A stretch of DNA of 44,187 bases, filler included, from Jimgerdemannia flammicorona (Eukaryota): the NCBI GenBank assembly GCA_003990765.1. It is 2 parts of 2 records of this genome, joined end to end, with 100 filler letters (N's around TTAATTAATTAA, not from the genome) between each part and the next. Parts side by side here need not be neighbours in the genome. Positions count along the whole stretch, not along the records: positions 22,150 to 44,187 come from RBNJ01001345.1; 1 more part is not named here. One strand, written 5' to 3'. Below are positions 4,790-44,187 of the stretch, piece by piece; position 1 is the stretch's first letter, and each line of letters opens with the position of its first letter. The notes beneath the pieces are model-generated. The model searched no databases. It saw only the letters and a list, made by a program, of their open reading frames with translations, and had not been told where the DNA came from. The translations under genes and the position numbers were made by a program.

Positions 4790-5040
4790 TTCTTGAGTTG
4801 GGTTAAAGATGGGTTACATATAATTCCAGGTCGGGTTAAAGATGGGTGATATACATTTCCAGGTCGGGTTAAAGATGGGTGATGTATAATTCCAGGTTGG
4901 GTTAAAGACAGGTGACGTATTATTCCAGGTTGGGTTAAAGATGGGTGATGTATTATTCTGGGTCAGGTTAAAGACAGGTGATGTATAATTCCGGGTCGGG
5001 TTAAAGATGGGTGACATATAATTCTGGGTCGGGTTAAATA
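4790..5040. repeat. 33-bp tandem repeat (CCAGGTCGGGTTAAAGATGGGTGATGTATAATT), ~7-8 copies, hAT subterminal repeats
   Basis: Head-to-tail units ending about 30 bp from the TAGTG-type terminus. Confidence 0.85.
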
Positions 5041-5073
5041 TGTATATGGGTTGGCTCAGGTTGTGATGCACTA

Positions 5074-6699: not shown

Positions 6700-7142
6700 A
6701 GTTGGATGAACACTTCTCTAATAAATATCTATTCATATATTACTTCTAGTATTAGCCAATAGCAATATTATAAATAGTGAATAAATCTATTAAATAATCC
6801 ATAAACTACTCTTAACTAAATCTATACTATATTAAGTTCCACTCTTAACTAGATTTAGAAATTTCCTAATTGGGTATTATCTGTAGCAATATACTGATTC
6901 AACTAAGCAGATCTTAGTTTCTTGAACTTTTTGAAATAAGGAAAATTCTGAATATCCAGAACAAGTCTAAGAAAGGACTTTAGTTAAGATATCAACTCAA
7001 TCTTAAAATCAATAAGTATAGATAATATACTCAATATGAAATTAATCTTGATCTAAAGAAAATAGTCTTCTAGAATATTCTAAACTTCTAAAAAATCCTT
7101 TCAGAACTATGCAATAGTATTCTAACAAAGTACTCTTTTATA
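6700..7142 (+). mobile_element. Degraded LTR fragment (R/U5) of the Gypsy family at 33429-44054
   Basis: GAAATTTCCTAATTGGGTATT...AACTAAGC...CTTAGTTTC...GAAAGGACTTT match the reverse complement of 33429-33860, with many C>T/G>A changes. Confidence 0.8.
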
Positions 7143-8441: not shown

Positions 8442-9113
8442 TATAATAAAATAAGATGCAATGAATGAGTAAATAGATGAGAAGTAATATATGATAAGTG
8501 ATTATGTGACTCAGTAATGATATCACTATCAATCAAGTATAATATATGATATATAAACAATGAATGTAATGAATGATATGAATGATGTAAAAAATGATAT
8601 CCAGCTTATCTCCAGCAATCAGCACCAGTAATCAGTACTACAGTAACTCAGATCATTGCTTAATAATTATGGTCCTAATTACAAAGTATTTTTGATTACA
8701 AACTATCTAACAAAGGTCAAGATCACAAATCTCACCATAGTTACCAAATTAGTCACTTATATTTAGTCAGAAATCATAGATCAAATTGTATAAATACTCC
8801 TCAGTTTCCATCAGTCTTTAATATAAGAATTAAGTTCTCCTTTATATATATATGTACATTCTTCTGAGTCTTAATAATAATACCTAAGTGACTCTAGTGT
8901 TTCTGACTAAACTCCAGAAGCCTAGCTAACTTCTGTCAGAACTGAGACAAGTATATAAATCATAAAGACTTAAGTAAATCTATTGAATCTGAATTCTAAG
9001 ATGAATTCAGTCTGTGCATAGCAAAGAATAAGTTTCTTACAACTATAGTTGATAAGAAGGACACTACTACTATAATTACTTTCAAGTGAGTACTTCCTCA
9101 AACTGAAGGCTTC
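8442..9113 (+). repeat. 5' LTR of the old Gypsy (3'-truncated)
   Basis: Colinear with 20249-20851 up to CTCAAACTGAAG(G/A)CTTC; TATAAATA near 8789. Confidence 0.85.
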
Positions 9114-9363
9114 ATTGCTGAGTAAAGTAGTCTAGCTAAAGAATTCAACATTGGGCTAAGAGGAGGAGTAGTTGACTAAGGATTTACTGGTGAAATTTAT
9201 GTCATCTTGTAAAATTTTGGAGACATCTCATTTGAAGTCAAAGCAGACCAAAGAATTGTCTAGACAATCATTGAAATAATTCATCAAAATCTCACTATTG
9301 AAGAAGTCTCTGAGCTCTCTCAGACAGATCATAACAAATAAGAGTTTATATCAATCAATAAAT
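9105..9363 (+). pseudogene. dut: dUTPase remnant (motifs 2-5) in the old Gypsy
   Basis: EGFIAE*SSLAKEFNIGLRGGVVD*GFTGEIYVIL*N...DQRIV*...EEVSELSQTD. Confidence 0.8.
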
Positions 9364-12219: not shown

Positions 12220-14136
12220 ATGGATGGCAATAATCGAACTGGTGAGCATACTGGCCAGGGGAGTGATGGCACCTTTGGCTGGCAGCAGGTGGGGAGGAGG
12301 GGAGATGGTTTGGGGATGCCAGGGGCCTTGATGGCTAGCCGAGGTCCTGGTGGTAGAGGGAGGGGCAGGCTGAGACAGAGAGGAGGAGAGAGGTTGACCT
12401 TTACTGATAAGGTCAGAATGGGCAAGATGGTCTCAGGCCTTGATGGTTGACTGGGCCTGGGGATGGCGTCAATGGCAGCTACTGGGGGACAGGGAGGTGT
12501 ACTCAGGGGAGTCTCAGGTAGCAGGGGAGGAGCAGGAGTAGGGGCTGGAGATGTGACTGTTGATGGGGCTGTGACTGGGGATCTGGCAAAAAATCCAGAT
12601 GTGACAGCGGTTGGCAATTTGGGACTGGGCATGGGCACGAGGCCCCGGGACCTGACAGATGGAGTGACGGGCATGGTGTCAGCCCTGTTACTCAAGAAGT
12701 CGAGGTCAGAATTCATGGTCACAATGTGCTTCCAGGGCTTGGCAGTGATGGTAAGGATGATTTTAAGGCTGGTGGTGCAGGAGGCTAAGGGTGTAGCGTC
12801 GGTGAAGTTTCTGAGGGGAAAGGAAGGGATTGAGATGGGGTTTGAGGAGGAAGACGCCTTGTTGGCAGCCATGGAGAAGAGGTTGATGGTTGGTGGGGTT
12901 GTGGTCCCTATGGCCTGGTGCATACGCTGGGACCTGTGAGTGGTGCAGTTGATGGTGTTGGATCTCTCTACTGTATCGAAGGAGAGGATAAGGGAGTTGG
13001 TTGTGGCGGCAATCCAGGAGTATGGTGAGATTGTCGATATTGGGTTCAAGGTCTGGGAGGGAACGGAGCTTCAAACTAGTGATGTGGATGTCAGGGTAAG
13101 GCTGGCTGGGAAGGAGAATATGGGGAAGTCAAGGGACTGGCCAGCAATGTTGAGGTGGGGACTGGTGGAGTGTAAGATCACAAGGGTGAAGGAGACCCAG
13201 GAGGAGGAGGAGGACCTGTTAGAGGCTCTGAAGGATCTGGAAGGTGTGGTTGCGAGGAGGAGATTGGCCTGGGAGGAGTTTGAGGCCAGGATGGTAGTGG
13301 GGGAGGTGGATGGGAAGAGGGTCCAGATGGAGAAGGGGGCCTGGGAGAAGATGCAGGGGAGGTGGATCCAGAAGGAGCTGTTGGCAAAGTTGAGTGGGAG
13401 TAGGGCTGGTGGAAGCTCAGGGGAGGGAGTTGCTGGGTTGCAGGAGAGCGCCTGGGCTGAGGGGGGAGAGATGGCCCAGGGCAGGGCTCAGATTGGAGTG
13501 GGGGAGAAGAAGGAGGGCAATTTGGAAGCAGATGCCAAAATGGGTGAGGGTGTGCACCCTCAGTATAGTGATCCAGATGGAGTGGAGGGGGAGGAGGAGC
13601 TGATGGATGTGCCAGATGAAGAGTGGGATGAGTCAGTGAGGAGGAGCGTGCTGGTGGACCCTGAGGTGGATGGGGGATGAATCGCCCAGGGTGCGGCTGA
13701 GGCGGTGGATGAGGAGAAGTAGATGTGGAAGACCCTGGAAGGGGTAGTGGCTGAAGAGCTAGGGGGTGAGGACTTCTGGGTGATGGAGGAGAGGCACTGG
13801 GAGGAGATCCTACAGGAGGAGGAGGTGCTGAGGAAGATGAGGAATGAGATCCTAGCTGTCCTCCTGGAGTTAGTTGAATATCAAGTTGATGGTCAGCAGG
13901 AGGAGGAACTTAGGAAGATTGCAAGTGACAGGGCACTCTTTTTGTGGAACTCAAGGAAGGGACTGGTGAAGTGGCGCGCAGTCTGCTTGGACTACCGGGC
14001 GGATATGGAGGAAGTGGACAGGGTGGAATGTCAGGAAATCTTGGGGGCACTGGATGCTCAGGATATCACAGAGGGTGACTTGGAAGCTGAACAGTACTTG
14101 GATCTGGCAGGAGATGAGATGAGCATGGAATTATAG
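12220..14136 (+). pseudogene. LINE ORF1 (Gly-rich N-terminus, RRM-like core, acidic helical C-terminus), with in-frame stops
   Basis: In-frame ORF pieces 12220-12450, 12463-12939, 12940-13680 and 13723-14136, separated only by TGA/TAG stops; IQEYGEIVDIGFKVWEGTELQTSDVDVRVRL. Confidence 0.8.
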
Positions 14137-14167
14137 GTTGGGGTCTTTGTTGTAACATTCCTTCAAT

Positions 14168-17100
14168 ATGAACAGTACAACTAGGATATTCTCGCTGAAT
14201 GTTAATAGGTTACAGGGGGTGGCTAGGAGGAAGTATATTTGGTTGGCTTAAGGGACTGGATGTGGACCTCTTTTTGTTGCAGGATGTTCATTATGAGGCT
14301 GATGTGGACTTACAGAATTGGACTAGGGAATGGGGGGGTGAGGCATTTTGGAGGGGGAAAGTGGGTATTCTTATTCAGAAAGGGATGGGGAACATTGGGG
14401 ACATTGGACATTGGGGGTCTTGGGTGGTGTGGGGAGTGTGGAAGAGGCCTGGATGGGGCCCACTGATGGTTGGGTCTTGTTACTGCCCAGCTGAGAGAGG
14501 GGAGAGAGTGGATTGGATTTATCGATTGAATGAGGCTGGAGTATTAGGAGGAGTTGGACTGGACTGTTTGGGGGGTGACTTCAATATGGTAAGGGATAGG
14601 AGGTTGGACAGAACTGATGGTGGGAGAGGCATGCAGGGTGAGAGTGGTGGGTTGGGTGACTGGTTGGAGACAGAGAGGTTGAGCTCTCTAGTGGACTCAG
14701 AGAGACATTTTTGGACTGATTGGTGGGTATACACCCACTGGGTGGCAGGGCTGGGCTCCAGGATTGACTGGGTTCTAACAGCAGAGTGTTGGGGAGCAGA
14801 TGTCTGGTCAGGGCTGGAAGTTGTATGGTGTCTGTGGTCTGATCACTGGGGGCTACTTGGAGGGGGGAGGTTTGGGGAAAATGAGAATAGGCCTGGACAT
14901 TGGCAGCTAAATTCTTTCTTGTTGGAGGATAGGGGGTTGTGGGAGGGTTGGGAAACAGAGGTGGTGGGTAATATCGGCAGGTGGCAAGAATAAGGACTGG
15001 AGATTGGTGACCGCTGGAGAAGACTGAAGGCGAATGCTCAGAGGTATTGGAGGGAAGCTGGGAAAGGAAAATGTACCCAGTGAAGGCAGTGGGTGTGGTG
15101 GGCCTCACGGCATCTGGCAATACTCATGGAAAGATGGGTAGGTGTGCTGGAGGATGGGGACGTGACTGATTGGCATATTGTGAGAATCTGGCAGGAGGTG
15201 GAGGAGCTTAAAGGGGTGCTACGAAGAGAGGAGGAGGAGCAGTTGCAGGGAATGGTGGCCTGCCTGTGGTGGCAGGGGCTTGAGGAGGGGGAGAGGCCAA
15301 CTAGGTTCCTGTCATGGTTGTTACAAGCATGACGAATGAGGCAGCAGTGGGAGGGGGTTTTGGATGTGGACAGTGAGCTGATGGTAGGGACTCTGGTGAT
15401 TCTGGGACTATTGTGAACCTGGTGGGAGAATCTTTGGAGTGAGGAGGAAGGAGGATTAGATGCTCTGGATGTTGAAAGGCAGCTGGGGGATTGGTACCTG
15501 AACCCTGTGATGGGACTTGGGGCATTGGGGGACCCAGTAAGTGGTGAGGAAATTTGCAGAGTTGTGGCCTCAATGAGTAAAGGGACAGTCCCGGGAGAGG
15601 ATGGACTTTCCTGGGATTTTTGGCAGAAGATGACTGGGGTGGGTGAGATACTAGAGGAAATGACAGCTATGTGCGATGGAGTTCTTCGGTCTGGTGTTTG
15701 GATTGGGGGACAGTACCTAGGGCTAGTCTCCTTGCTCTATAAGAATAAGAGAAGGTGAGAGGACTGGAAGAACTGGCAGCCAATTATGCTTCTCGACATG
15801 GACCACAAACTGGTGACGAAAATTTTGGTGGTGAGACTGCAAGGTATTGCTCAGCAGGTGCTTGGTGTGGAACAGTGTGGGTTTGTCAGTAGTCAGTTGA
15901 TTCGAGATGGGACAGCCTGGGTTCATGGAGTGATTGAAGATGCCTGGGCAGCAGGGGTGGATGGCAGGTTGGTGTTTCTGGACCAAGAGAAGGCTTATGA
16001 TAGGGAGTGGAGAATATGGCTGGAGGGTGTGCTGAAATGGATTGGTATCCCTCAAGGGTTCCGAGGATCATTGATCAGTCTCTTGGAGGATAGTCAGGTG
16101 GCATTGGTCATCAATGGCCACAGGGGGGTGACCTTTCCCCTGGGATGTGGGGTACTACAAGGGGACCCCTTGTTACCCATTTTGTATGCCCTTTCCCTGG
16201 AGCCACTCCTGGACAGAATTCGGCATCAGATTGAAGGTTTGGACATTTTAGGGGTTAACTGGAAGGTGGGGGCCTTTGCTGATGATATGGTGGTCGGGCT
16301 GGGCTCCTTGGTGGATGTGGGAGAGTTACAGAGGACTGTGGAATAGTATGAGAGGGGTTCTAGTGCTAAGCTAAACTGGCACAAATGCGAGACACTGGTG
16401 CTGGGCACTGGAATTGTTGGTGGCGATGTCATTGGGACAGTGGTACCGGCTGGTGAACCGGTTCATTACTTGGGGATCTACTTCTCGGTGTTTGGATCTC
16501 TTCTTCCCCGAGCATGGTGGGATCATAAACTTCTGGAGTGGGGTAATGTTTTGCTGCATTGGGGAGGCTGGCATATGTCTCTAGCTGGGAGAGTGATGGT
16601 GTTGAATCTATACTGGATGCTGAAGCTGTGGTATGTTGGATATCATTTGGATTTCCCAGCCTGGGTGGTCAAGGGGCTGTTGAAGATGGTGAGATCATAG
16701 ATCTGGGGAGGGTGGCAAAGCCAGGTTGGTTGGGAGGTGCTCACACTGCCCTTGGAGAGAGGTGGGCTGGGCTTAGTAGACTTTACTAAGTGGCTTCTTT
16801 GTCTGAGAGCCTGGTGGCTGTGAAGGGTGAGCAAGCTTCAGGGTCAGGAGTGGGTGCCACTCATGTAGAGATTATGAGAGGTTTGGTACTCTCCACATGG
16901 TGGTTCTGGTGATTTGCTCACAATGGTGGCCATGGAGGGGAGCAGGAGGATGCAGTTTATGGGCTTTTGGTGGGGGGTGGTAGATGGTGCTAAGAAAATT
17001 GGACTTCGGTGGTGAGATGATGAAGCTGAGGAGGTTTGGGGCCTGCAGATGTGGCAGTGAGACAGGCTTCTACTGGGTGGCATTCTGGTGGAGAACTTTC

Positions 17101-17828
17101 AGCTTGGCGAGGGTCTGGAGAGTCTGCGAGGCCTGGGTAGAGACCTGTGGCCAGAAGTCTGGCAGAGGGTTGGAATTGGTGAGGAGTGGGATTGGAATGG
17201 CCTCTGGCATTAGAGCAAATGGGTGAGGCAGTGGCTGCCCCCCAAGTTCTGGGTGGTGTGGTGGCGAGTCCTACAGAGGAATATGATGTTGAACTATCGG
17301 TCGGGACACTTGGTGGCCAGTGGAGTATTTAAGTGTGAGGATTGTTTCAATGTTGGTCAGGAGGGAGGAGTGATACAAACACCTGAACATTGGCTTGGCG
17401 AATGTGAGGTTTTGGAGAAGTTCTGGAGATGTATTATGGACTAGGTGGGGCTGGGTGCTATAGAGAGAAAGGGAGGGGGGAGATGGGGAGAGCTTCGCTG
17501 GAGACTGGTGGGTGGGGTTGGGGATGAATGGCTGACCCTTAGTTGGGCTTTGGCTATGTGGGTTGGGTTGGCTGGGCACTGGGTTCATGTCTTTGAAGAA
17601 GGGCATCAGGTCAGGGTTGGTGAAAAGGTAGCCCATTGGGAATGGTTGCTGTTGGACATTTTGAATAGCTGGTGGCAAGGATGGGGAGTGGGTGGGGGGA
17701 ACCACAGAGGTCTGGTGCAGTGTATATCTCAGAAGAGTAGTGGGAGGATTCGGGTCATTGGTAATTGGGTAGTGCTCAGGCAGGGGGAGGTTGAGGAGGG
17801 GGGGTTGGGTCCCCAGGGTATTGATTGA
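14168..17828 (+). pseudogene. LINE ORF2: apurinic endonuclease, reverse transcriptase and C-terminal CCHC
   Basis: SLNVN, LLQDVH, GGDFN, SRIDW, SDH (APE); HWQLNSFLL, EGERPTRF, PGEDGL, LDQEKAYDR, QGDPL, FADD, YLGI, GGLGL (L1/Tx1 RT); CEDC...EHWLGEC. Confidence 0.92.
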
Positions 17829-20248
17829 GGGTGGGGGAGATATTGTATTGTTAACAATATAGACTTCAGTAATAAAGGGCAGTCCAAGAGACTATAAAAA
17901 AAAAAAAAAAAAAAAACTATTATATCTGACCAAGATACCAAGTTTACAAGCAACTTCTAGAAGGTATTCTTCTCTCTCTATAGAACTAAGCTGAAGTTCT
18001 TTACTACTTACTACTCTTAGACTAATTGTCAGACCAAGTGAACTAATAGGACCCTCAAGCAGATATTCAGCATCTTCTGCTGTTACAAGTAGAATAATTG
18101 AGACAAGTATCTAGCCCATGCCAAGTTTGTCTATAAAAATAGCCAGCAAACCTCTATGAAGAAGACCTCATTCTTCCTGAAACATAGTCAATACTCAAGG
18201 ACCTCAAGTACTCCTGTGAAATTAGTAGTTCCAGCAGCTCAAGATTTGGCTAAGACTATTTCTGACTTTATGCAAATGATAAGAGATATTCTTATAGAAG
18301 TACAGGACTACCAGACTAAGTATACAAACTTAAAGTAAAGAGAAGTCTCCTATAATATTGGTGACATAGTTATGCTTAGAACAGACCATCTCTATCTAGA
18401 TACTCTGGTATAGTAACTATTCAAGAAACTCTATGCTTGAAGAATTGGACCCTATAAGATTGTGGAAAAAGTCAGAAAAGTCAACTACAAGTTGTAACTC
18501 TCTTATAATATTCAAGTATATCTGGCATTCCATATCAGCCAATTGGTAGACTATTATGAGAACTTATTCTCTGAGTATACAGTTCTACCACTATCCCTAA
18601 TTAGGATCAATGACTATGAGGAATTCAAAATTGAGAAAGTGTACTTAACCACAAGGTCTACAAATATGCCAAAACAGTCAAGTGGTTTTTCCTTATTAAG
18701 TGGAAAGGTTACCCCACCCATGATGCTACCTGAAAAAAAGAAGAAATGCTAAAGAATGTATAAAGCTCTTCAGGACTATATAGAAATACTCACCCCCAGC
18801 AGAGAAAGAAACTATAGCTCTAAAATTTAGAGTACATAGCAAAAGAAGAAGATATCATATTTATATAAGATATACAATACTGAATATTACAGAAAAAAAG
18901 AACAACTATAATTAATCAATAATAGAATACTCAGGCAAAGAACAACTCAGCAAGATACAGCAAAACATATTTGAACAATTCTATTTCACACCATCTGTAT
19001 CATCTCTACTGGAGAATGACAGATACTTCATATAGAACTTAAGAAAGCCAATGACATCAAAACCAATCAAAGTCTATCTACATGATAGATATTGTTATTA
19101 AAAATTATCTCAGATTATAAGAAATACTATTTCTGAGAGGTTTGAATCCCAGCCACAACAATAGGAGCCCTTGCCTTAGACAAAGATGGTTAGTCCTCAC
19201 AAATATATCAACAAGATAAAAAAAAAAAAAATGGACTAAGATCTATCCATTCTGTATAACTATATTTATAATATAGTGATATATTTAAAATTAGAATTTT
19301 CTCATATGACTAGTACATGTCCTGCTTACAGCAATAAGTCATACATTCTACTGGAAAATGTGATCAAATTAAAGTCATATCAGATAGATTAATAAATATA
19401 AATACCTTGGGCTGAAGCATACTACAACTTCCATCCCCCTCTTCTCTCTCTAAAGAAAAGATAAGATAAGAATGTCAGCTATCTGCTGCCAAATAGCCCA
19501 CTATAGCCAGCCTCTCTCAAGCCAGGTTGACCACCTTTTTGGACACATTCAGGTCACTATCCAAGGAAGGAACTGCTGCTCTAAGATCCTTAACCTCTTT
19601 AGCCAGGACCTAGGACAGTATGTCCTTGACTACTGTGAAGTCATCAAAAGGACCTACCTTGCTATCAGCTGCCTAGAAATCTAGTATAAATAAAAAATTG
19701 TCCATCAACTTCTTAATATATAAATGACCTACCTACTGATCAGACCTCAGACTGGACCAACCTAGTAGGTATAAGCAAAGACTAGATAAGAAGGTCTATC
19801 AAATTATGTACTATACACTCTTTACAATTTCCAATCTCAACTATGTACAACTGAAAGACTTTCAGAACCTCTCATTCTTTGAGATTGTTAAGCTGGAAAT
19901 CAAGATTATCCAAGAAGCCAACTTCTGGATTACTTTCAAATCCACTAATTATAAATCTCACTGGAGCTCTCTCTTATATAACAATCTAGACCAATGGCTC
20001 TAAGGTCTCTCTGATCTTTTTGAAGAACTGCCTATCTGAATAGATATTTCTAGGCATAAGGAATAAGAACTCAACTTAGATGGTCTCAATTATATTAGAT
20101 GGAGAACTCTTACTTCAATATCTATATTAGTTTAAGAACTATTTGTAGACCTCATTGACTTCTCTATCTTAGATATTGAGTCATCAGCAACTATCCCTCT
20201 AGCCACTAGAGGAGAAGATAATAATACTGATTTTTAAGAAGAGAAAGA

Positions 20249-20933
20249 TATAATAGAACAAGATATAATGAATGAGTGAACAGATGAGATATGATATATG
20301 AATGATATAAATAATATGAAAAATAATATCTAGCTTATCTATAGCAATTGCTACTACAGCAATCAGTGCTGCAGTAACTCAGATCATTACCTAATAATTG
20401 AGGTTCTAATTATAAAGTATTTTTGTTCACAAACTACCTGACAAAGGTTGTGATCACAAATCTCACCATAGTTATCTTATATTTAGTCAGAAATCACAGA
20501 CCAACTTATATAAATACTCCCTAGTTTCTATCCAAAATAAAGGAGTTTTAGTTCAGTCCTTGATATAAGAATCAAGTCACCTTCCATATACATACATTTC
20601 TCTGAGTCTTAGTAATGATATTTAAGTAATACTAGTATTTCTAACTAAGCTCCAGAAGTCTAGCTAACTTCTGTCAGAACTGAGACCAGTATATAAATTA
20701 CAAAGACTTAAGTAAACCTATTGAATTTGAATTCTAAGGCAAATTCAGTCTATGTATAGCAAAGAACAAATCTCTTATAACCACAGTTGAAAAGAAGGAT
20801 ATTACTACTATAACTACTTTTAAGTGAGTGCTTCCTCAAACTGAAGACTTCTTGATATATATTATATACTAAGTCTCTTTGTTTTCCCAATTATCCAAAG
20901 GATAAGAGAGGGGTAGAAATAAGAGTTATTATA
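20249..20933 (+). repeat. 3' LTR of the old Gypsy (~685 bp)
   Basis: Preceded by a PPT, matches 8442-9113, followed by a near-TSD. Confidence 0.85.
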
Positions 20934-22049: not shown

Positions 22050-22149
22050 NNNNNNNNNNNNNNNNNNNNNNNNNNNNNNNNNNNNNNNNNNNNTTAATTA
22101 ATTAANNNNNNNNNNNNNNNNNNNNNNNNNNNNNNNNNNNNNNNNNNNN
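22050..22149. other. Assembly gap with artificial six-frame-stop linker
   Basis: 44 N + TTAATTAATTAA (22094-22105) + 44 N. Confidence 0.97.
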
Positions 22150-22189
22150 AAAATGGCATTGCTGATGCTTTATCCCGCACTGATCTTCC

Positions 22190-23824: not shown

Positions 23825-24575
23825 TTGGGCCGGTCTTTTATACCGTGTGTTTCCACCCAAATACAGAACAATCGATCATTTATTTGAGGTTTCTTTCCTA
23901 GGATTTCGGGGTGATACATGGTCATTTCGGTGACATGGGGTTATTGGTGTTTTATCACGAAGATTGACATCATGTAAGTGTAGCGTAGTTGACATTATGC
24001 AAAACATAGTATAGTTATGCCTCCCTAGCATAGATCGACATTATGGCAAAAACATTGAATGAGGGGGCTCGCTCGAGACCACAGGTCAATGAATGCAGGA
24101 AGGTCTTGGGTGTATAGTGCCCAAAATGTTTCAATGCCATTGTTTGTCTAAGGCATGTCTAAATCAGGCGTAGTCTTTCCTTTTTTGGTACTAGCGCAGT
24201 AGACACATTACTTCTATATGTAATTCTACCATTCACTCAACATTACTTCGTATGTGCTTTACACTTACACTTTTGCACTTCTGTACATTTATACGCATTT
24301 CATTACCACCCACCTCACCCTACATATATATACATAGTGGTTGGGCTGGTCTTTTATACCATGTGTTTTCACCCAAATACAGAACAATTGATCATTTATT
24401 TGGGGTTTCTTTCCTAGGATTTCAGGGTAATGCATGGTCATTTCAGTGACATGGGGTTATTGGTGTTTTATCATGAAGATTGACATCACGTGAGTGTAGC
24501 GTAGTTGACATTATGCAAAACGTTGTATAGTTACGCCTCCCTAGCATAGATCGACATTACGGCAAAAACATTGAA
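23825..24575 (+). repeat. Split direct repeats B1 (23825-24059) and B2 (24341-24575), 235 bp each
   Basis: TTGGGC(C/T)GGTCTTTTATACC...GGCAAAAACATTGAA present twice, differing mostly by transitions. Confidence 0.92.
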
Positions 24576-33201: not shown

Positions 33202-33428
33202 ATATTTATAACCTACTTGTAATTTAGAGATATATTAATAATTACAAGTTATGAATGAGTCAGAGTAGTATGATTTATTAATATAGTGGTAGAATACTGA
33301 GAGAATTTTCTTATATATATGTGATATTGTTTTCTTATTATAAATCTGCAATATAGTATTATAAAAACAGCTTTTTAGAAGATAGTCATCAAGGTTATAT
33401 CTAATAGTATTTGTAGAAGTAATAAAAG

Positions 33429-35469
33429 TGTAAGAGGGTTACTTTTTAGGATAACTGTTATGTAGTTCTGGAAGGGTTTTCTGGAAGTTCGGGATATTCT
33501 GGAAGACCGTTTTCTTATGGTCAAGGTCAATTTCATATGGAGTATGTCCTCTACGCTTATTAATTTCAAGATTGGGTTGACGTCTCAACCAAAGTCCTTT
33601 TCCGGACTAGTTCTGGATGTTCAGGATTTTCCGTATTTCAGGAAGTTCAGGAAACTAAGACCAGCTTAGTTGGATTGGCATATCGCTGCAGACAATACCC
33701 AATTAGGAAATTTCGTGGCAGGGTTGGGAGTGGGACCTAACAGGGAGCGGATTTACTTAAGAGTGATTTGTGGGTTATGGAATAGATTTATTTGCTATTC
33801 ATGATATTGCTATACTAGGAGTATTTGTGTGAAGGGGTATTATGGGGAAGTATTCAGGAATGTTCTTGTCTGTTCGAGTCTCAGATTCTGAGGTCTGGGA
33901 GAGGGGGTATTTATACTAGTGAGGGGCTATCTGGACTATGCTAGATATGGATGTAGCACTAAGTGCCTTGCTGAGTCGGAATGCAGTCACGTAGTACAAG
34001 TGTGATCTGACATGTCAAGAGATCATCTGACTGCTGAGTCAGTTCACAGTTACATCGTACAAGGCTAATCTATCTATACTATGACTGCTAGACTATTTAT
34101 AGGTCTAGGCACTATCTGGGTAGTCTTCGATGACATCACCATCAATTGCATCATCTCTGATGAAGTAGTCGTCTAGGAAGAGTGGTTCGTGGATTACTTC
34201 TCCTTGTTGGCTGAGGTAGTAATATATTGGGACTTCATCTCCGTCCCATAGGATAGTATCATCTGTCTCGTATGCTGGATAAGGTGTTGGTAGGCGAAGG
34301 ATGGGTGTATTGTCTTCACTTTCATCAGATCCACTATCTGCGTACCTTCTATAGGTTACAGCACTATGAGTCGCGGGGTTGTAGTAAGCTGGCGGCTGTG
34401 GTTCAAGTTGCTTGTACTCGGGTGGTGTGGTTGGTTCAATCTCGAGGGTTGTCTGGAGATACAGATTGTGTTCTCTGGTCTCTTCATTGTAGTTGAAGTA
34501 GTCAGGGGTGAATGCAGGTTAGTATTCGTGCCAGTGGTCATTGTCCCAATAAGTCTCGTATGCAGTTATGAACTGTTGTAAGTTCATTGGCAAGGTTGGC
34601 GGAGATCCTTGGCTAGAGGTCATATCAGCGTCAGAGGGGTTGTTGTCTTCTGCTTTGTCTTCATCGAAGTGGATTATATCATAGACGTCCTTCATGGCAT
34701 ATCTGACTTGAGGCATTTGCAGGATATGGTCATCGGGGTGCGGGAAGGTTCTGTCTGTGGTTTCGACATACTCGAGGTACTTGTGGTTGATTTCTTGTAT
34801 CATGTCATCGATTTGGCCGTAGGACAGGGTAGCAACCATTTCGCTGGTAGTGACTCGGAGGCGGGGAATAAAGGTGTTGTACTCATAGAAGAGTTCTCGA
34901 TGTTTGCGGGCGATGAGCTTCTGGTGTTGAGACATCTGGATAATGTCTGTATCATGGTGGTGTTCGACCATGTCTTCCAGGAGGCAGCCGATCTGGTAGT
35001 AGCTTGAGATTTGTCTGATTCGGTGTGCCTCGCTAAGCATGTTCAGGGCGTTCCATCGGGCTTCCACGAAGTAGAGGGGTGCCAGGCTATGGATATTCAT
35101 GAGGGGCAGAGGGGGTGTGGCTCGGTTGACAATGGCATTCCAAATGTCAGTGCGGATGCAGTTGTAGATCTCAGTGGTCATGTTGGTGTGTTTGGAAGTT
35201 GGGGTTGTTGTTTGTTTTGGTTTTCTGATTCGACGCATCTCGGTGCTCAGTATATATGCATTTGGTCCTGATTGGTAAGGTTCCGTTTGTGTAGATCTTG
35301 TATTCCGTGACTTCATATTGACTCAGCTTTGTGTACTGTGACTTCGGTTTGACTCAGCTTCATGATCAAGCAGGTGATTTCCAGATTTGTTCAGAGGTCG
35401 CGTGTGATTTCAGTGGCTTGTTCAGAGGGTGATGTGTAATTTCGGTGGCTTGGAGGTTGTGCGCTTACA
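33429..35469 (-). repeat. 3' LTR (2041 bp)
   Basis: Colinear with 41991-44054; TATA at 33908-33915; preceded on the minus strand by a PPT. Confidence 0.93.
34105..35316 (-). CDS. LTR U3-encoded protein of unknown function: 265-aa ORF plus an in-frame acidic 137-codon extension after a TAA at 34519
   Basis: Open frame 35316-34519; the same frame stays open to TAG at 34105; a homologous frame is present in the 5' LTR. Confidence 0.7.
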
Positions 35470-35484
35470 ACTCTCCCCTTCTTA
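35470..35484 (-). promoter_or_regulatory. Polypurine tract
   Basis: Minus-strand AAGAAGGGGAGAGT directly before TGTAAG. Confidence 0.9.
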
Positions 35485-35896
35485 GCTTTTGACGTTCTCG
35501 TCGGGGCCTTCTAATTTGTTCTAGTGTTGTTACACCGTTTGGGAGGTCAAAAGTCTGGTAAGGTCCATTTTCTCAGAAAGTGGCATGCTCGTAGTACAGT
35601 TGCCTAACGTGTTGGATTCACACGTTAAAGGCTCGTGTGTTCAATGCCATGTGCTGGAAGTGATTCTGACGTCGTTCACTGCTGGAGAATTTCCTCTAAG
35701 GAATCTTCTTAAATGTCTACGCCTTGTTTCCCACCAGTGGTACAGAGAGAATAGGCTTGCTTTCAGTTTTTGCTATTTTTCCAGGGATTCGGTAGTCTTG
35801 TCTTGTTTTGCTGAGTTCTTGATTTGGTTCGTGATAATTATAATGTTTGGAAGGATAATATATAGTGTGTGTGGATAGGTGCAGAGTATTTTGGTT

Positions 35897-38800
35897 CTAG
35901 TTGTTTAAGGACTCATATTCCTGAACTAGGTCAGTAGCATTCTGGAGGTTGGTCTTGGGTTCCCAGGTTGCATCGTGGATCGGGTAACCTTTCCATTTGA
36001 CAAGGTACTCGGAATGGTTCTTGTTACCACGTTTGTTGAGGATTTGTTCAACTTCATATTCTTCTTGGTCATTTATGATGACAGGTGCAGGTGGTTTGGT
36101 GGTCCGGTTTGGAAATAGCTTGTCATCATTGTCATTGTATCGCTTGAGACGTTGAACATTAAAGACTGGGTGAATCTTAATAGTGTCTGGTAGTGCTAGT
36201 TTGTAGGAGGTTGGAGAGACTTGTGCAATGATTTTGAATGGTCCAATAAACTTGCTGTTCAGCTTTGTAGATGGTCTGTGCTTGAGGTTGTCAACTCGGT
36301 ATCCTCTGATATCCAGTAGGACTTTTTCTCCAATGTCAAAGGTTTCTTCTCGGCGGTGTTGGTTAACATACTGTGACTGTTGTTCTTGAGCTCGGGATAG
36401 ATTCTCAATGGCAATCTGGCTTAAATTGCACATTCGGAGTAGGAATTCTTCAACTGCTTCAACTGTGGAGGGTTCTTCAGTGGTTCGGATAAGTGTCAAA
36501 GGGGTGTTTGGATTTTGTCCAGTATTGGCGAAGAATGGGGTCATTCCAAGAGAGGCTTGCTTGCTGTTGTTGTAGGCAAACTCGACTGCGGTGAGATGTT
36601 CATGCCAATCATCTTGTCTGTATGAGACATAGTTCCTTAGCATTTGTTCCAGAGTTCAGTTCATTCTTTCAGTTTGGCCGTCAGTTTCAGGGTGAAAGGC
36701 TGTGGATAGTGCAAGTTTCATTCCAAGGTGTGCATGGAGGGCTTTCCAAAAGTGGCTGGTGAATTTCGGATCTCGGTCACTAACAATGATCTTGGGAAGA
36801 CCATGATAGTGGAAGATGTTGTCAAATAAGAGTGTGGCTATGTCTGGTGCTGTTGCAGTAGTAGTAGTAGGCACAAAGTGAGCTTGTTTGCTGAGATAGT
36901 CCACAAAGACAACAATTGCATCTTTCCCGTTCTTTGTTCGGGGTAGTTGCATGATGAAGTCCATAGAGATTTGTTCCCAATTTGCAGATGGTACTGGAAT
37001 AGGGTGGAGTAAGCCAGGTTTTGCTAGTGTTGAGGACTTGTTTCATTGGCAGGCATCACAGGAAGTAATGTAGGTTTTGAGCTGATCTGCCATGCGGGGC
37101 CAATAGAAGTTTCGGGAGATAACTTCATAACATTTATCAAATCCTAAATGTCCAGCTGTAGGGGCATCATGATATTCGAATAGGATAGTCCTTCGGAGGT
37201 CTCGGTTGTTTGGAACATACAATCTGTCCTTGTAGTAGATAGCATTGTCCTTGAGTTGGTATTGATTATACCGGGTATGCTTGTCAGCATCATCATTGTT
37301 CAGGATTTCTCGGAGTGCTTGAGCTTCTTTATCATCAACATATGCTGCGATGATTTGTTCCATAATAGTGTTGGTAACCAAGGTCAGAGTTTGGATAACC
37401 TCTTCGATTAGTGGTCTGGAAATTGCATCGGCAACAATATTTTCCTTGCCAGGGCAGTACTGAATTTCGTAGTCAAAGTTGGTGAGGACTTTCATCCATC
37501 TAGCTTGCTTTCAAGAAAGGGTAGCCTGTGTCTTGATATTGACTAATGACTTGTGGTCAGTCAATACAGTAAAGTGTGCTCCTTCTAGGTATGGTCGCCA
37601 TTTAATCAGAGTGTCTACGATGGCTAGCATTTCCTTCTCGTGAGTTGCGTAGTTGATTTCAGCATCATTGAATTTGCGGGAGTGGTAGACCACAGGGTGT
37701 CCTTCTTGCATGAGTACTGCTCCAAGAGCTAGGTCAGAGGCATCAGTGGTAACTTCATATGGTAGGGCAGGGTTTGCCGCTTGAAGTACAGGTGTGGTTA
37801 TCAGGGCATCTTTCAGTGCTTGAAAGGTGGTATCTTGTTTGGGTCCCCAAGTTACAAGATTGTTGAAGTTTTTCTCTTGTTTCATGGTCCAGGGTTGTTC
37901 TTGTTTCTTACTGTGCTTAGTCATTTGGGTGAGGGCAGTAGCAATTTTAGCAAAGTTGGCAATGAATCGCCTGTAATAGTTTGCTAATCCCAGGAATGAC
38001 TGGAGGTCTTTCAGCTTCTTCAGTGTGGGCCAATCTTTGATTACAGCGATTTTGCTGGGGTCCACTTTGATTCCATTTGGGGTGACAATGTGTCCAAGGA
38101 ATTGAATTTCTTTCAGAAGAAATTCGTACTTGCTGAGTTTTGCAAAGAGTCGGTTTTCTCAGAGTTTCAGTAGTACTAGTTCAAGGTGTTCAAGATGTTC
38201 CTCCAGGGTTTTGCTGAAGACTAGGATGTCATCAATGTAGACAACAACGAATTTGTCCAGGTATGGATGCAGAATAGTATTCATCAGTGTCTGGAAGGTT
38301 GCTGGGGCATTAGTTAAGCCAAAGGGCATAACCAGGAACTCGAAGTGTCCATAGCGAGTTCGGAAGGCTGTCTTGTAGATGTCTTCTTCTTTCATGGCAA
38401 TTTGCCAGTAACCATTTCGCAGGTCAAAAGAGCTCATGAATTGTGGGTTGGTAAGTCTATCGAATATTTCATCAATTCTTGGTAGTGGGCAACAGTTCTT
38501 GATGATCTGTTCATTGAGGTCGTGGTAGTCAATGCACATTCGTAGGTCTCCTCCTTTCTTGACAACGAAGAGGACTGGTGCACCATAGGGTGATACACTG
38601 GGTCTGATGAATCCTTATTCTAGGAGTTCGTCAATTTCCTTCTTGAGTGCATCAATTTCTCTCGGAGACATGTGGTAGATTGACTTGAAGGCTGGTTTGG
38701 CGTCTGGGATAGTCTTGATGGCATGATCTACTGCTCGTTTGGGAGATAGGCCTTTTGGGAGCTTCTTTGGGAATATGTCTTGGAATTTCTGGAGTAGTGG

Positions 38801-41800
38801 TCTGACATGGCTGTCAACTTTGGAAAAATCTTCTTCAGAGTTCTCGGGTTCTCCTTTGGATGGTCGGATGGAGATGGTGAAGAGAGGGCATTTCTTGGCC
38901 AATTTCTTGAGTTGTAGCTTGTTGATGTAGGTGATCTTTGGTCCAGGGTCACTAGAATTGAGTGGGTCCTTTTCACCTTGTAGTTTGAAGTTGTGGCATC
39001 CTTTCTTGATGGTCAGAGAATGGTTTACCCAATCGATCATGGGGTTCTCTTGTTTTAACCATGGAGTCCCAAGGATGATTTCATTGTCTAGAAGTGGTAC
39101 AATTTGGAGGGTAACATGTACTCGGTAGTCACCAATTCGGAAGGGTAGATTGCGGACTTCTTTGCTAATAACATGTGAGGTTCCATCTGCTGTAGCAACT
39201 GCTTGAGTTTGCTGTACTGGGGAGGTGAAGACCTTGAGTCTGTTGGCTGTCTCCTCATTGATGAAATTGCCTGAGGCACCACTGTCTATTATAATCTTGA
39301 CAGGTGCTCCGTTGACAAAAGCCTTAAGGGTGAGCAGTTTGTCTGATCCAATGGTGGTGATTTCAGTTGTAGGAGCCTTTCTTCTGTTGGTTCTTCTTTG
39401 AGCTAGTTTGTTGACACAAGAGAAGCAATCATCAATCATTCAGGAAGAGTACATTCCAATACTATGAGGGCATTGGCCACTTGGTACATATCCATCTTCT
39501 ATCTTCTTGTAGAATTGTTCTTCTTTGCTCACAGTAGATTGGGCTGGGGCCTTGTTTGATGAGCCAAATCCTTTGGATCCTCGGATGGTGGGTAGTAGTT
39601 CAGGGACTTTCTTGACTGTCAGGGTTGACTCGATTTTTTCGAATAGGATCTGGGTGATGCAGAAGCCAATAGGGATCTTGAAGGGTGTCCAACTGTGATT
39701 TCGGATGAGGACAATGATTTCGCCTGTGTAATCTTCGTCGATGACTCCTCCTTCTACTGAGAGTCCTTTCAGTGCTAGGCTGCTGCAACAGCATATTCTT
39801 CCAACATGTCCTTCAGGGATTTGGATACTGATTCCTGTGTAGACTTGTTTGACTTCTCGGTTGGAAACTGTAGCTTCTTTGGCTGCATACAGGTCATATA
39901 TGGCTGCTTTTTGACTTCCTTTGGTTGGGGCCTTAGTAGTTTGTCTTAACTTGACAAAGTCTAGTGTTCTGGTGGTCAGGTTGTTGAGGTGGTGCAGAGT
40001 GGTGACAGTTGCTCGGGTTGCTGTTCAGGGTTTTCGGTTTGGGCAGACACTGGCCATGTGTCCTGTCTTTTGGCAATAGAAGCATGCTCCACTTCTTCGA
40101 AGTTCATTTCTTTCGCCTTCAGTAAGTTTCTTGAAGGTACTTGGCTGAGTGGGTTCATGATTTCTGGGTGTCCATGAGGTGGATGTGGAGGGAGCTCGAG
40201 ATGCTTCATGCTTGGGTTCTTCTTTCTTGGTCCAAGTCTTTTCCTTGTTGTTGAATTGCCTTTGGGGCAGAATTGGTCTGGCTGTTAGAATTCGCTTGAC
40301 CATGGTCTTGATTCTTGCCAGGCACCATTGTTGGTGGTCACAACCAACTGGGTGGCCTTGTTCTCGGATTTTTCTAGTAAGCCATTCAGGCAGGGTATCA
40401 AATAAATGGTCTGCTCTTGTACCATTTCATGCTTCATCATTGGCGATATATCCTAGGCTAACAGTGTTCAGGAGTGACTCGAGTTTTGTACAGAAGGTTT
40501 CGAATTCTTCTTTGCCATGTACATCAAATTTGAGGTTGCAGAGTTTTACTCAAGATTCAGCGATCATGGTTTCACTGCAATATTGAGCAATCATGAGTTG
40601 TTTGAGTCCAGGGGCTGCAGGATGGGCTCCATATCCTGGGCCATTGTTTGCTGCATTCTGGGCAACTACTGCAGGTCAGGTATCCCATGTGAGGGGTTTT
40701 TCAGGAAGGGTTCACCACCATTCTTCGGCAGGTCCTTGGAAGAATGTAACAACTCGGCGGACATAGGCTGTAGTTGTAGCAAAGAGTTGTTCCAGAGTGT
40801 AGTCTTGATTGTTTGTCAGAACGCGATCAGCAACTCGCTCATTGGTCCATTGATTGGCTTCAAAGTTGGTGTCAACTATGCTAATGAAGCTTTGGACTTC
40901 TTGTGCAGTACCATTGAAGGTAGGTAGGCTCAGATTTTTGGTAGGTTGGGTCTGTTCAGCTAAGGCAGTAATGGTTGCTGCCATTATAGCTACTTGGGCT
41001 GTGAGGTCTAGAATCTGTTGGTTCGCCATATTGATTGCTGGAGGTGGTTGGACTGCTGGTAGTGGTGTTACTAGTACTACTTGAGATACTGGTTCAGAGT
41101 GTGATGGGGTTCTTTGGGTCTGTGTAAGTTGCTGGAGTAGTAGTTGTAGATCTGGAGTGAGGGCTTGATAGATAGCTGTTTGTTGCTGTGTAGGTGTATT
41201 CTGTCCTGATGGGTGTGTGTCTCCTTCAGTGGTGTATCCGGGATCAAATTCGGTGAGATACTCCTTCTCTTCTTCGGTTTGGTCCCCGTGTAATTGGGTT
41301 TGCTCGGCGTCAAAGTAGACAGAATCAGTTGTATATCTGATTTCAGATAGACTTAATTCAAAGTCAAGTTCAGGTTTGGTATTGGTTTCAGATTCAGGTA
41401 GAGCTGTAGCAGGGCCTTCTTCAGGTTCAGGGTCAGGTAGTTGATGAAGGGTTTCTCTTGCTTCTTCTTTGAGGATATGGCGGGCCTTGCTGTTCTGGAA
41501 TCGGTAGTATAAGGCAGTCTTGGTCCTGGTACAGTGAAAGTTGGTAGAGTTGAGCCACATGGCTACAGAGGCTTGGGCTTCATGAGGAACTAAGGCTAGA
41601 AAGACTGCTGCTGGTTGTCCTAGGTCGCTCGGATTTGTGGAGCTAACAAAACTCTTGTTGAGAAGAGTAAAGAAGGCTTCAATAAGACCTTCTTCATCTT
41701 GACTTGCTGGGTGTAGTGCAAGGAGTTTGGTGAATAGGGTTTCACCTATTTGCTGGTTTAACTTGAGTACTTCTTTCTTTGAATGAAGTTTATCTCACTT

Positions 41801-41900
41801 GTTGTAGGTGTGGAGGTCAAATTGTCCTTGTATGTCAGGTTCAATTCTCTCTAGATTATCAGATGGTTCGGATAAATTCCAGTTCAGAGGTTGGGCTTTA
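35897..41900 (-). pseudogene. gag-pol: Gag-dUTPase-protease-RT-RNase H-integrase-chromodomain polyprotein, one frame with point stops
   Basis: LPTFNG, CFYCQKTGHMASVC (NC), dUTPase motifs, [93 protein letters not shown]. Start position approximate. Confidence 0.95.
39557..39965 (-). CDS. dut: dUTPase domain between the NC zinc knuckle and protease (missed by the ORF track)
   Basis: AAIYDLY (motif 1), GRICCCSSLA (2), GGVIDEDYTGEI (3), CITQIL (4), RGSKGFGSS (5). Confidence 0.93.
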
Positions 41901-41975
41901 TACCAACTTGTAGGAATTTGCAGAGGGGTTTATAGCGGGGTGAGGAAGCATCTTGAAGTGGAATTGGATTGTAAA

Positions 41976-41987
41976 CCACTACTACCA
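41976..41987 (-). promoter_or_regulatory. Primer-binding site, probably initiator tRNA-Met type
   Basis: TGGTAGTAGTGG 3 nt from the 5' LTR end; resembles the TGGTAGC.. of iMet PBSs after C>T decay. Confidence 0.6.
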
Positions 41988-41990
41988 AGT

Positions 41991-44054
41991 TGTAAGAGGG
42001 TTGCTTTTTAGGGTAACCATTACGTAGTTCTAGAAAGGTTTTCTGGATATTCTGGATGTTCTGGAAGACCGTTTTCTTATGGTCAAGATCAATTTTATAT
42101 AGAGTACATCCTCTATGCTTATTGATTTCAAGATCAGGTTGACGTCTCAACCAAAGTCCTTTTCCAGACTAGTTCTGGATGTTCAGGATTTTCCGTATTT
42201 CAGGAAGTTCAAGAAACTAAGACCAGCTTAGTTGAATTGGTGTATCGCTGCAGACAATACCCAATTAGGAAATTTCGTGATGGGGTTAGGAGTGGGACCT
42301 AACAGAGAGCAGATTTACTTAAGAGTAGTTTGTGGGTTATAGAATAGGTTTATTTGCTATTCATGATATTGCTATACTAGGAGTATTTGTGTGAAGGGGT
42401 ACTGTGGGGAAGTGCTCAGGAGTTGTGTTCGGATTGTTCAAGTCTGAGATTCTGAGGTCTGGGGGAGGGGGTATTTATACTAGTGAGGGGCTATCTGGAC
42501 TATGCTAGATATGGATGTAGCACTAAGTGCCTTGCTGAGTCGGAATGCAGTCATGTAGTACAAGTGTGATCTGATATGTCAAGAGATTGTCTGACTGCTG
42601 AGTCAGTTCACAGTCATGTCATATAATGCTAATCTAACTATACTATGACTGCTAGGCTATTTATGAGTTTAGGCACTGTCTGGGTAGTCCTCGATGACAT
42701 CACCATCGATTGCATCATCTCTGATGAAGTAGTCGTCTAGAAAGAGTGGTTCGCGGATTACTTCTCCTTGTTCGCTGAGGTAATAGTACATTGGAACTTC
42801 ATCTCCATCCCACAGGATAGTATCGTCTGTTTCGTATGCTGGATAAGGTATTGGTGGGCAAAGGATGGGTGTATTGTCTTCACTTTCATCGGATTCACTG
42901 TCTGCATACCTTCTATAGGTTACAGCACTATGAGTCACAGGGTTGTAGTAAGCTGGTGGCTGTGGTTCATGTCACTCGTACTCAGATGGTGGGGTTGTTG
43001 GTTCGATCTCTAGAGTTGTCTGGAGGTACAGATTGTGTTCTCTGGTCTCTTCATTGTAATTGAAGTAATCGGGGGTGAATGCGGGTTAGTATTTATACCA
43101 GTGGTCATTGTCCCAATAAGTCTCGTATGTTGTTATGAATTGTTGTAAGTTCATTGGCAAAGTTGGCAAAGTGATCAGGGTTGGCAGAGATCCTTGGCTA
43201 GAGGTCATGTCGGCATCAGAGGGATCATTGTCTTCTGCTTCATCTTCATCAAAGTGGATTATATCGTAGATGTCCTTCATGGTATATCCAACTTGGGGCA
43301 TTTGCAGGATTTGATCATTGGGGTGTAGGAAGGTTCTATCTGTGGTTTCGACGTACTCGAGGTACTTGTGGTTGAGTTCTTGTATCATGTTATCGATTTG
43401 GCCATAGGACAGAGTAGCAACCATTTCGCTGGTAGTAACTCAGAGGTGGGGAATAACGGTGCTATACTCATAGAAGAGTTCTCGATATTTGCAGGCAATG
43501 AGCTTCTGGTGTTGAGACATCTGGGTAATATCCGTATCATGATGATGTTCAACTATATCTTCCAAGAGGCGGCCGATCTGATAGTAGCTTGATATTTGTC
43601 TGATTCGGTGGGCCTCACTAAGCATGTTCAGAGCATTCCATTGGGCTTCCATGAAGTAGAGGGGTGCTAGGCTATAGATATTCATGAGGGGTAGAGGGGG
43701 TGTGGCTCGGTTGACAATGGCATTCCAAATGTCAGCGCGGATATGGTTGTAGATCTCAGTGGTCATGTTTGTGTGTTTGGAAGTTGTAGTTGTTGTTTGT
43801 TTTGGTTCTCTGATTCGATGCATCTCGGTACTCAGTATATATGCATTTGGTCCTGATTGTTAAGATTCCATTTGTGTAAATCTTGTGTTCCATGACTTTG
43901 TATTGACTCAGCTTTGTACACTGTAACTTCAGTTTGACTCAGCTTCGTGATCAAGCAGGTGATTTTCAGATTTGTTCAGAGGTCATGTGTAATTTTGGTG
44001 GCTTATTCAGAGGGTGATGTGTAATTTCGGTGGCTTGGAGGTTGTGCGCTTACA
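41991..44054 (-). repeat. 5' LTR (2064 bp) with an interrupted copy of the U3 ORF (42669-~43893)
   Basis: Colinear with the 3' LTR; TATA at 42472-42479; ORF pieces 43440-43823, 43086-43424 and 42669-42938 are all in one frame. Confidence 0.93.
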
Positions 44055-44187
44055 GGTACCTTCCCCCCTCTCAGCCAGCTCTCCAGTCCAGCTCCCTGCC
44101 GACCCCCCTTCACCTTCTCCGCAAAGCTCACCCTGCCAGACCCTTGACCTCCAGCTCTGCCCCCTCCTCCACCACCGCCCCCTGCCA
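44055..44187 (-). mobile_element. LINE ORF1 fragment, continuing beyond the window
   Basis: GGGGRAGGQGSGRVSFAEKVKGG matches RLTFTDKVR / PSFTDKVK of the other copies. Confidence 0.7.

Follow-up and report, generated by a model that had tools for sequence, protein, structure and literature searches.

A probable protein-coding gene inside the long terminal repeats of a chromovirus from Jimgerdemannia flammicorona

In this work we analysed a stretch of DNA from Jimgerdemannia flammicorona (assembly GCA_003990765.1) and found that the long terminal repeats (LTRs) of a Ty3/gypsy chromovirus located in it contain a reading frame which, judged by its sequence, is a genuine protein-coding gene under purifying selection. 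The whole stretch, called the window below, has 44,187 nucleotides, filler included; it is made of two parts of two records joined end to end, and positions 22,150 to 44,187 come from RBNJ01001345.1. The element is a degenerate copy, which occupies positions 33429-44054 on the minus strand. We consider it fairly probable that the LTR gene comprises about 358 codons starting at the methionine of codon 46 (Met46), that it is a long-standing resident of the LTR and that it was kept by purifying selection in the transposing lineages. The copy in the window is dead. The evidence for selection was drawn from one LTR pair, from two fragments of homologous proteins and from contig data in summary tables.

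A sequence-only reading of the window had reported a sense frame of about 400 codons in both LTRs, placed in U3 between the start of the LTR and the TATA box. The frame was found in the 3' LTR from 35316 to 34105 on the minus strand, with 403 codons followed by TAG, and an equivalent frame in the 5' LTR is 86.6% identical by tblastn; it is not open, however, since a TAA at codon 266 is common to both LTRs and the 5' copy has three extra stops at codons 14, 154 and 303. The frame does precede TATAAATA (33915-33908), but the designation U3 assumes a transcription start. The longest stop-free frame has 267 codons, and 405 codons are reached if one stop is allowed, compared to maxima of 216 and 266 codons, respectively, in 1000 dinucleotide shuffles of the LTR read in all six frames. 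The length of the frame is beyond chance, because none of the shuffles reached it. From its place within the LTR it follows that every transposition duplicates the frame into both LTRs and that solo LTRs would retain it, a point on which the sequence-only reading was right.

Homologous proteins were recognized in two database fragments. P0003 (247 amino acids) is 63% identical over residues 160-402 (248 columns) and is open throughout, with Gln opposite the TAA, and P0004 (128 amino acids) is 92% identical. Among the non-identical ungapped positions of P0003, 45 of 85 are BLOSUM-positive (0.53). Neutral drift was simulated from the codons of the window down to 64% amino-acid identity, with 500 runs at each of three transition shares; the BLOSUM-positive share had a mean of 0.28-0.32 and a maximum of 0.49 in the 1500 runs, and just 0.4-2% of the runs gave a stop-free outcome.

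Other copies of the family were compared over 33400-35520 by means of the contigs of four public runs (3600, 448, 59 and 388 pieces). At position 34521 the shared TAA is replaced by CAA (A>G on the plus strand) in 376.4 of 387.5 units of depth in run X1 (27 contigs), 73.6 of 78 in run X2 (10 contigs), 3.65 of 3.65 in run X3 and 37.5 of 37.5 in run X5, and TAA is rare in the family, accounting for about 3-6% of the depth in X1 and X2. At the end of the coding sequence (CDS, 34105) all other copies have TAA and not TAG, thus the stop is kept. Of the six indels listed for the other copies, the two within the interval from Met46 to the stop are +3 and +18, and the four outside are +1, +1, -4 and +1. 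The LTR pair itself has indels of 18 and 3 nt inside the frame, both multiples of three, and of 2 and 1 nt outside; the +3 and +18 events of the other copies are at the same two sites, so the two observations are not independent.

The substitutions between the two LTRs point to the same frame. It contains 121 differences, distributed as 31/18/72 over codon positions 1/2/3, and 108 of the 121 are transitions. Because transitions dominate and the CpG sites are nearly saturated, the test was conditioned on dinucleotide context; the observed counts of 26/17/65 differed from the expected 38.8/22.9/46.3 with p=0.0013. Synonymous codon changes numbered 58 against an expected 38.9 +/- 4.2, a value reached in none of 5000 simulations, and new stops numbered 2 against 7.5 +/- 2.0 (P=0.004). 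The synonymous excess was present both in codons 46-265 (31 vs 22.0, P=0.005) and in codons 267-403 (23 vs 14.5, reached in 0 of 2000), and it was missing from the two other frames (17 vs 24.9 and 13 vs 16.7) and also from codons 1-45. Outside CpG, the change rates were 2.5-9% at positions 1 and 2, 21-25% at position 3 and 13-20% in the non-coding LTR, and the CpG classes were changed in 44-71% of cases everywhere in the pair. The Nei-Gojobori dN/dS was about 0.13 in the frame and about 1.6 out of frame, with CpG sites in or out; this method overstates constraint under transition bias, and the simulation-based ratio is about 0.46. Additionally, the codon-position composition and codon usage resemble those of pol (relative synonymous codon usage, r=0.73; gag-pol, 0.68; other frames, 0.07 and 0.55). 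Neutral decay with dN/dS near 1, named beforehand by the sequence-only reading as the outcome that would speak against its gene, was therefore not what the LTR pair displayed.

The real start of the gene is probably Met46 (ATG, 35181-35179), since Met1 is missing from the 5' LTR copy, Met27 is ACG in most other copies, frameshifts and neutral changes lie upstream, and the JGI fragment P0004 begins exactly at Met46. Among the indels listed for the other copies, those that shift the frame inside the 403 codons (-4 at 35208 and +1 at 35222) are both upstream of Met46. Within codons 1-45 the LTR pair has 3 synonymous and 7 non-synonymous changes, where the neutral expectation is 2.2 and 7.6.

The repeats which carry the frame are the true LTRs of the chromovirus, because the polypurine tract (PPT) and the primer-binding site (PBS) abut their TG..CA ends and other copies diverge exactly there. 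Direct repeats about 8.56 kb apart resolve to a single 2.04-kb pair with 89.5% identity over 2069 aligned columns. The fit of the other-copy contigs ends exactly at 33429 and 35469, and beyond these ends they enter PBS-like sequence in run X2 or unrelated DNA in run X3 (at both ends); one X2 contig has the PBS-like TGGTAGCAGCAG at the position of the junction between 5' LTR and PBS. The internal region between the LTRs is one frame interrupted by single stops, with Pfam matches to zf-CCHC (5.9e-5), gag-asp_proteas (1.8e-13), RVT_1 (4.5e-29), RT_RNaseH_2 (4.1e-33), Integrase_H2C2 (5.5e-20), rve (7.2e-10) and SH3_Tf2-1 (2.4e-18). PF00385 Chromo (3e-18), at residues 200-249 of the last pol piece, is the C-terminal chromodomain of the integrase, and a dUTPase (PF00692, 1.3e-31) is located at 39440-40024 on the minus strand, between the gag zinc knuckle and the protease. 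The nearest pol proteins are only about 54-55% identical across the part from integrase to chromodomain, and the named relatives belong to Paraglomus occultum (49% identity) and Haematococcus lacustris (37%); P0021, with 54% identity in the integrase, comes from an element on a 28.7-kb contig. The LTR sequence occurs in soil and root metagenomes. Rfam and tRNA scans of the window gave no matches.

A target-site duplication of the expected 4-6 bp is absent, with GTACC upstream and CTTTT downstream of the element (flanks 44055-44059 and 33424-33428); this fits a recombinant or rearranged copy and leaves the chromovirus membership unaffected. The missing duplication and the 10% divergence of the LTRs could also be taken as signs that the 2-kb repeat arose by segmental duplication around a true LTR of lesser length, an outcome that the sequence-only reading had itself considered. 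We regard this explanation as refuted by the junction data and give it hardly any credence: the TG..CA dinucleotides stand at the extreme ends of the 2-kb repeat with PPT and PBS directly adjoining, and copies in other samples break off exactly at 33429 and 35469. The earlier claim of a chromovirus with LTRs of about 2 kb was thus confirmed, as the ends, the PPT, the PBS, the domain order and the chromodomain all agree. As a separate observation, a fragment at 6759-7146 on the plus strand matches the U5 end of the LTR with 77% identity; it is heavily AT-enriched, its 5' side is cut off by unrelated GC-rich low-complexity sequence, and it holds no copy of the open reading frame (ORF).

The two LTRs of a single insertion start identical and should then drift neutrally. 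We infer from the signature of selection between the LTRs, together with the lack of a target-site duplication, that two family members recombined to give the element, which would hence be chimeric, or that the LTRs were gene-converted. At the best-supported variant places the 5' LTR mostly agrees with the family majority and the 3' LTR differs, seven transversions included. On this view, a large part of the divergence outside CpG would go back to the transposing lineages, and the CpG decay would have happened in place. Codons 267-403, downstream of the shared TAA, look constrained nevertheless; parallel C>T changes at CpA, a small conversion tract or read-through are possible explanations of this combination.

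Two explanations dispute that the frame is a gene that serves the element. One of them takes it for a frame that is open by chance in non-coding, A/C-rich sequence of the LTR, and the sense strand is indeed rich in A and C and poor in T and G, so that fewer stop codons are expected. Dinucleotide shuffles never attained the observed length, however, the excess at third positions and at synonymous sites is confined to this frame, and an open homologue with 63% identity exists (P0003); as far as one element pair and two fragments allow, we consider chance refuted, with practically no likelihood left to it. According to the other explanation, the frame is a passenger, namely a captured cellular gene or its remnant, which brings no benefit to the element and decays slowly. 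The TAA common to both LTRs means that a lineage with a broken frame was still able to spread, and neither a family nor a function was recognized for the protein. No cellular homologue was found among 1.84 billion representatives, though, purifying selection is apparent both in the LTR pair and in P0003, the codon usage is pol-like, and most copies are open at the TAA site, which makes a passenger very improbable.

Several points weigh against a resident gene kept by selection, and should be read together with the evidence above. The selection test on the LTR pair presupposes that the history of the two LTRs is not just that of a single insertion. That P0003 is open is in part an effect of ascertainment, since the database contains called ORFs only; its conservative substitutions are free of that bias. 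No more than two homologous fragments (P0003 and P0004) were present in about 15 billion proteins, both from short metagenome contigs. The presence of the TAA in both LTRs implies that the broken gene did not stop the lineage from spreading, or that the stop arose twice. The AlphaFold2 (AF2) and ESM Atlas models are too poor to assign a fold or a family, so functional statements are weak. The promoter, the start site and the poly(A) site were read from sequence only, and TGAGTCA, a candidate promoter motif discussed below, is not significantly enriched in the window (18 vs 9.6 +/- 3.3; 4 of 100 shuffles reach 18).

The protein is an acidic one and, by its composition and the models, would be soluble, with an N-terminal part that is predicted to be helical and a tail that is probably disordered. 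From Met46 it has 357 residues without the stop and a pI (isoelectric point) of 4.42, with 63 Asp and Glu against 22 Lys and Arg, 29 Tyr, 28 Pro and 2 Cys. The sequence-only reading had described a helical-looking core and an acidic tail. The tail was borne out: residues 267-403 have a pI of 4.05 with 30 Asp and Glu against 6 Lys and Arg, and they are rich in Tyr, Pro, Asp and Glu. The helical core rests on the secondary structure of low-confidence models: AF2 placed long helices in residues 46-190, with a pLDDT (predicted local distance difference test) of 31.9 for the full length and 41.7 for residues 46-265. Structure prediction, which had been proposed as a check of the protein, accordingly returned helices at a pLDDT too low to give the fold. 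For P0003 the ESM Atlas model had a pLDDT of 0.39 and template-modelling (TM) scores of at most 0.30. No membrane segment was detected, the maximum 19-residue hydropathy being 0.86, and for this reason an env-like or Sag-like protein is unlikely. The acidic, aromatic-rich tail behind a helical domain resembles the make-up of transcriptional activation domains, and on this analogy a trans-acting regulator or adaptor is weakly suggested.

Searches for relatives of the protein yielded little. No Pfam family was obtained for it at E<=0.1, and the best match among the sequences of the PDB (NDUFB9, E=1.1) was taken as chance. The homologue search gave 1 match among 903 candidates near the length of the query and 1 among 68 at shorter lengths; HMMER over all lengths of the 1.84 billion representatives gave three matches, which were the two fragments of the LTR ORF and the weak P0005. 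This last protein (ENA, 436 amino acids, cluster of 18) consists of repeats of about 68 residues and matches in a short helical stretch (residues 156-193, E=4e-4, 30%); we considered it chance or a small motif and did not use it. In the ESM Atlas the best score for P0001 was 0.82, and two Mucoromycota clusters at 0.81 were taken as a lead only. At the DNA level, scans of metagenome contigs and of viral contigs revealed no relatives. A tblastn match of the protein at 6006-6128 (E=6.6), adjacent to the LTR fragment at 6759-7146, was dismissed as chance in low-complexity sequence, and the PPxY-like and YPxL-like motifs of the tail were dropped as late-domain signals, PPAY being not kept in P0003.

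The genomic RNA of an LTR element has the order R-U5-...-PPT-U3-R, and the ORF thus stands at the 3' end, the place of the retroviral accessory genes. Three routes of expression can be considered. The one that we favour, for which the case comes close to an even balance, is a promoter of the gene's own in the first ~250 nt of the LTR, with the transcript ended by the AATAAA of the LTR. In that case every LTR, even a solo one, would form a gene complete in itself, and its protein might serve the element in trans, in the role of a regulator or adaptor. The candidate elements are two copies of TGAGTCA, which we presume to be meaningful as a promoter motif, and a TATATA box (Table 1). We prefer an own promoter to a spliced subgenomic RNA because the latter needs an intron of about 6.5 kb, whereas short introns are the rule in fungi, if the host is one.

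The gene might nevertheless be real and expressed as in a complex retrovirus, that is, as a 3'-terminal ORF from a spliced subgenomic RNA that starts at the 5' LTR promoter. Here the ORF follows directly after pol and the PPT, and so it is present once per genomic RNA; there are precedents in MMTV (mouse mammary tumour virus) sag, lentiviral nef and the ORF3s of other LTR retrotransposons, and the ORF3s of LTR retrotransposons are typically expressed from spliced messages, according to PMC5408684. Against this stand the promoter-like elements just upstream of Met46 and the size of the intron, which would be unusual if the host is a fungus, and we regard this route as unlikely. The third route is less probable again: the genomic RNA would start at the upstream TATATA (35256-35251), U3 would measure only ~250 nt, and the ORF would belong to an extremely long R, where it would precede gag as a leader ORF and recur at the 3' end. 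The first 250 nt do look like a classical U3, having a variable 32-nt tandem repeat followed by a TATA-like box (the joints of other copies skip 31, 32, 37 or 67 nt in the repeat), and by the established retroviral mechanism reverse transcription rebuilds the same LTR from either start. Such an R, however, would extend over ~1.4 kb, far above the known R regions, the AATAAA of the 5' LTR would have to be bypassed at 1.4 kb from the cap, and the conserved TATAAATA is found at the canonical distance upstream of AATAAA.

Table 1. Positions of the LTR gene and of the other parts of the element in the window
Feature	Position	Strand	Remark
5' LTR, 2064 nt	41991..44054	-	TGTAAGC...TCTTACA ends
CDS counterpart in 5' LTR	42669..43763	-	stops at codons 154, 266, 303; in-frame insertions of 18 nt and 3 nt
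PBS, TGGTAGTAGTGG	41976..41987	-	begins 3 nt past 5' LTR; sequence read
gag (CCHC), dUTPase, protease, reverse transcriptase, RNase H, integrase, chromodomain	35897..41794	-	degenerate, single in-frame stops; Pfam
PPT, AAGAAGGGGAGAG	35471..35483	-	ends 1 base ahead of 3' LTR; sequence read
3' LTR, 2041 nt	33429..35469	-	TGTAAGC...TCTTACA ends
32-nt tandem repeat (2.1 copies)	35387..35452	-	5' edge of LTR
Candidate own promoter: TGAGTCA x2 (35350-35356, 35319-35325) and TATATA (35256-35251)	35251..35356	-	70-75 nt before Met46; kept in both LTRs
45 in-frame codons upstream, probably leader or promoter and not coding	35182..35316	-	neutral changes; frameshifts in other copies
Most likely CDS, Met46 to TAG, 358 codons	34105..35181	-	interrupted by TAA at 34519-34521
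In-frame TAA, codon 266, common to both LTRs	34519..34521	-	CAA (Gln) in most other copies
TATAAATA, presumed promoter of genomic RNA	33908..33915	-	189 nt past CDS stop; identical in both LTRs
AATAAA, presumed poly(A) signal for genomic RNA and LTR-internal mRNA	33787..33792	-	313 nt past stop

The window has further repeats outside this element. A second pair of direct repeats (8626-9113 and 20357-20851) is 86% identical and 11.7 kb apart, and a match to the retroviral protease RVP_2 lies between them at 9633-10313; a GC-rich insert at 12000-18000 has matches to Exo_endo_phos (E 2.6e-4, below the Pfam cut-off) and RVT_1 and is LINE-like. By these matches the region 8626-20851 resembles a further LTR element into which a non-LTR element is nested. 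About 7 overlapping copies of a 33-nt unit, in register, form a tandem array at 4764-5071, in a strongly G/C-skewed low-complexity region, and a 235-nt direct repeat (23825-24059 and 24341-24575) has copies that are 93% identical and 516 nt apart. The N runs at 22050-22093 and 22106-22149, 44 bases each, are the filler between the joined parts. Upstream of the 5' LTR, the G-rich flank at 44055-44187 on the minus strand encodes, by eye, a Gly-rich peptide with the motif SF-x-x-K-[VI]-K, which resembles the frame on the minus strand at 5775-6539 and 8244-8501; these LTR copies may thus be flanked by a further repeated element.

The closest parallel in position is sag of MMTV, a sense ORF of a few hundred codons wholly in U3 of the LTR, the product of which is a type II membrane glycoprotein. 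Like sag, the LTR ORF is in sense orientation inside the LTR, upstream of the presumed genomic promoter TATAAATA, and occurs in both LTRs; unlike sag, it encodes a protein that has neither a hydrophobic segment nor similarity to anything named, and the element is a Ty3/gypsy chromovirus and not a retrovirus, with a host that is apparently a soil fungus. Lentiviral nef and spumaviral bel/bet are 3'-terminal accessory ORFs, and that of the foamy viruses is served by a second, internal promoter. The LTR ORF shares with them the 3' position and would likewise have sequence in common with U3. In contrast, nef and bel/bet begin upstream of the PPT and only overlap U3, whereas the whole CDS here is downstream of the PPT and inside the LTR, and no homology was found. 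The features of an env-like ORF3 are lacking, as the PPT is upstream of the ORF and a hydrophobic segment is absent.

Extra ORFs (ORF3, aORF) were described in plant and bdelloid rotifer Ty3/gypsy elements as family-specific, often orphan genes 3' of pol, and rotifer lineages with a dUTPase were reported as well (PMC5408684). The LTR gene is likewise a family-specific orphan 3' of pol; the plant and rotifer ORFs, however, are located between pol and the 3' LTR, with one per element and none in solo LTRs, while the present one is inside the repeat. A chromodomain integrase combined with a dUTPase in the polyprotein is known from fungal chromoviruses of Phanerochaete, Postia and Tuber, and a figure legend lists an 'additional ORF with unknown function' for fungal elements (excerpts of PMC2864245). 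Our element agrees with these chromoviruses in having chromodomain and dUTPase, the reported positions of the latter being variable, and differs from them in the ORF in its LTR, which goes unmentioned for them in the same excerpts of PMC2864245. A phrase search of the literature returned no description of a protein gene located inside the LTR of a fungal retrotransposon; most subscription journals were outside its scope, and absence is thus unproven.

LTRs are usually viewed as non-coding control regions, with MMTV sag as the textbook exception. If a high-copy chromovirus, which is no retrovirus, has a constrained orphan gene wholly in its LTR, gene dosage would follow the number of LTRs and not the number of elements, and solo LTRs could remain biologically active as genes. 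In the furthest-reaching version, which we put forward as a speculation with rather low likelihood, every LTR, solo LTRs included, would be a complete gene with its own promoter, a 358-codon CDS and a poly(A) signal, and its product would feed back in trans onto the LTRs of the family, for instance as an acidic activator or as an anti-silencing adaptor. If this were true, there would be hundreds of dispersed copies of a transposon-encoded regulator, outliving the elements that delivered them, and the signal of selection beyond the TAA common to both LTRs could mean read-through of the stop or separate use of the C-terminal part. Annotation pipelines for transposable elements that mask LTRs would systematically hide such proteins. 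Furthermore, the LTR gene would provide a testable case of accessory gene gain, in which an ORF at the 3' end enters the repeat once the PPT has shifted relative to it.

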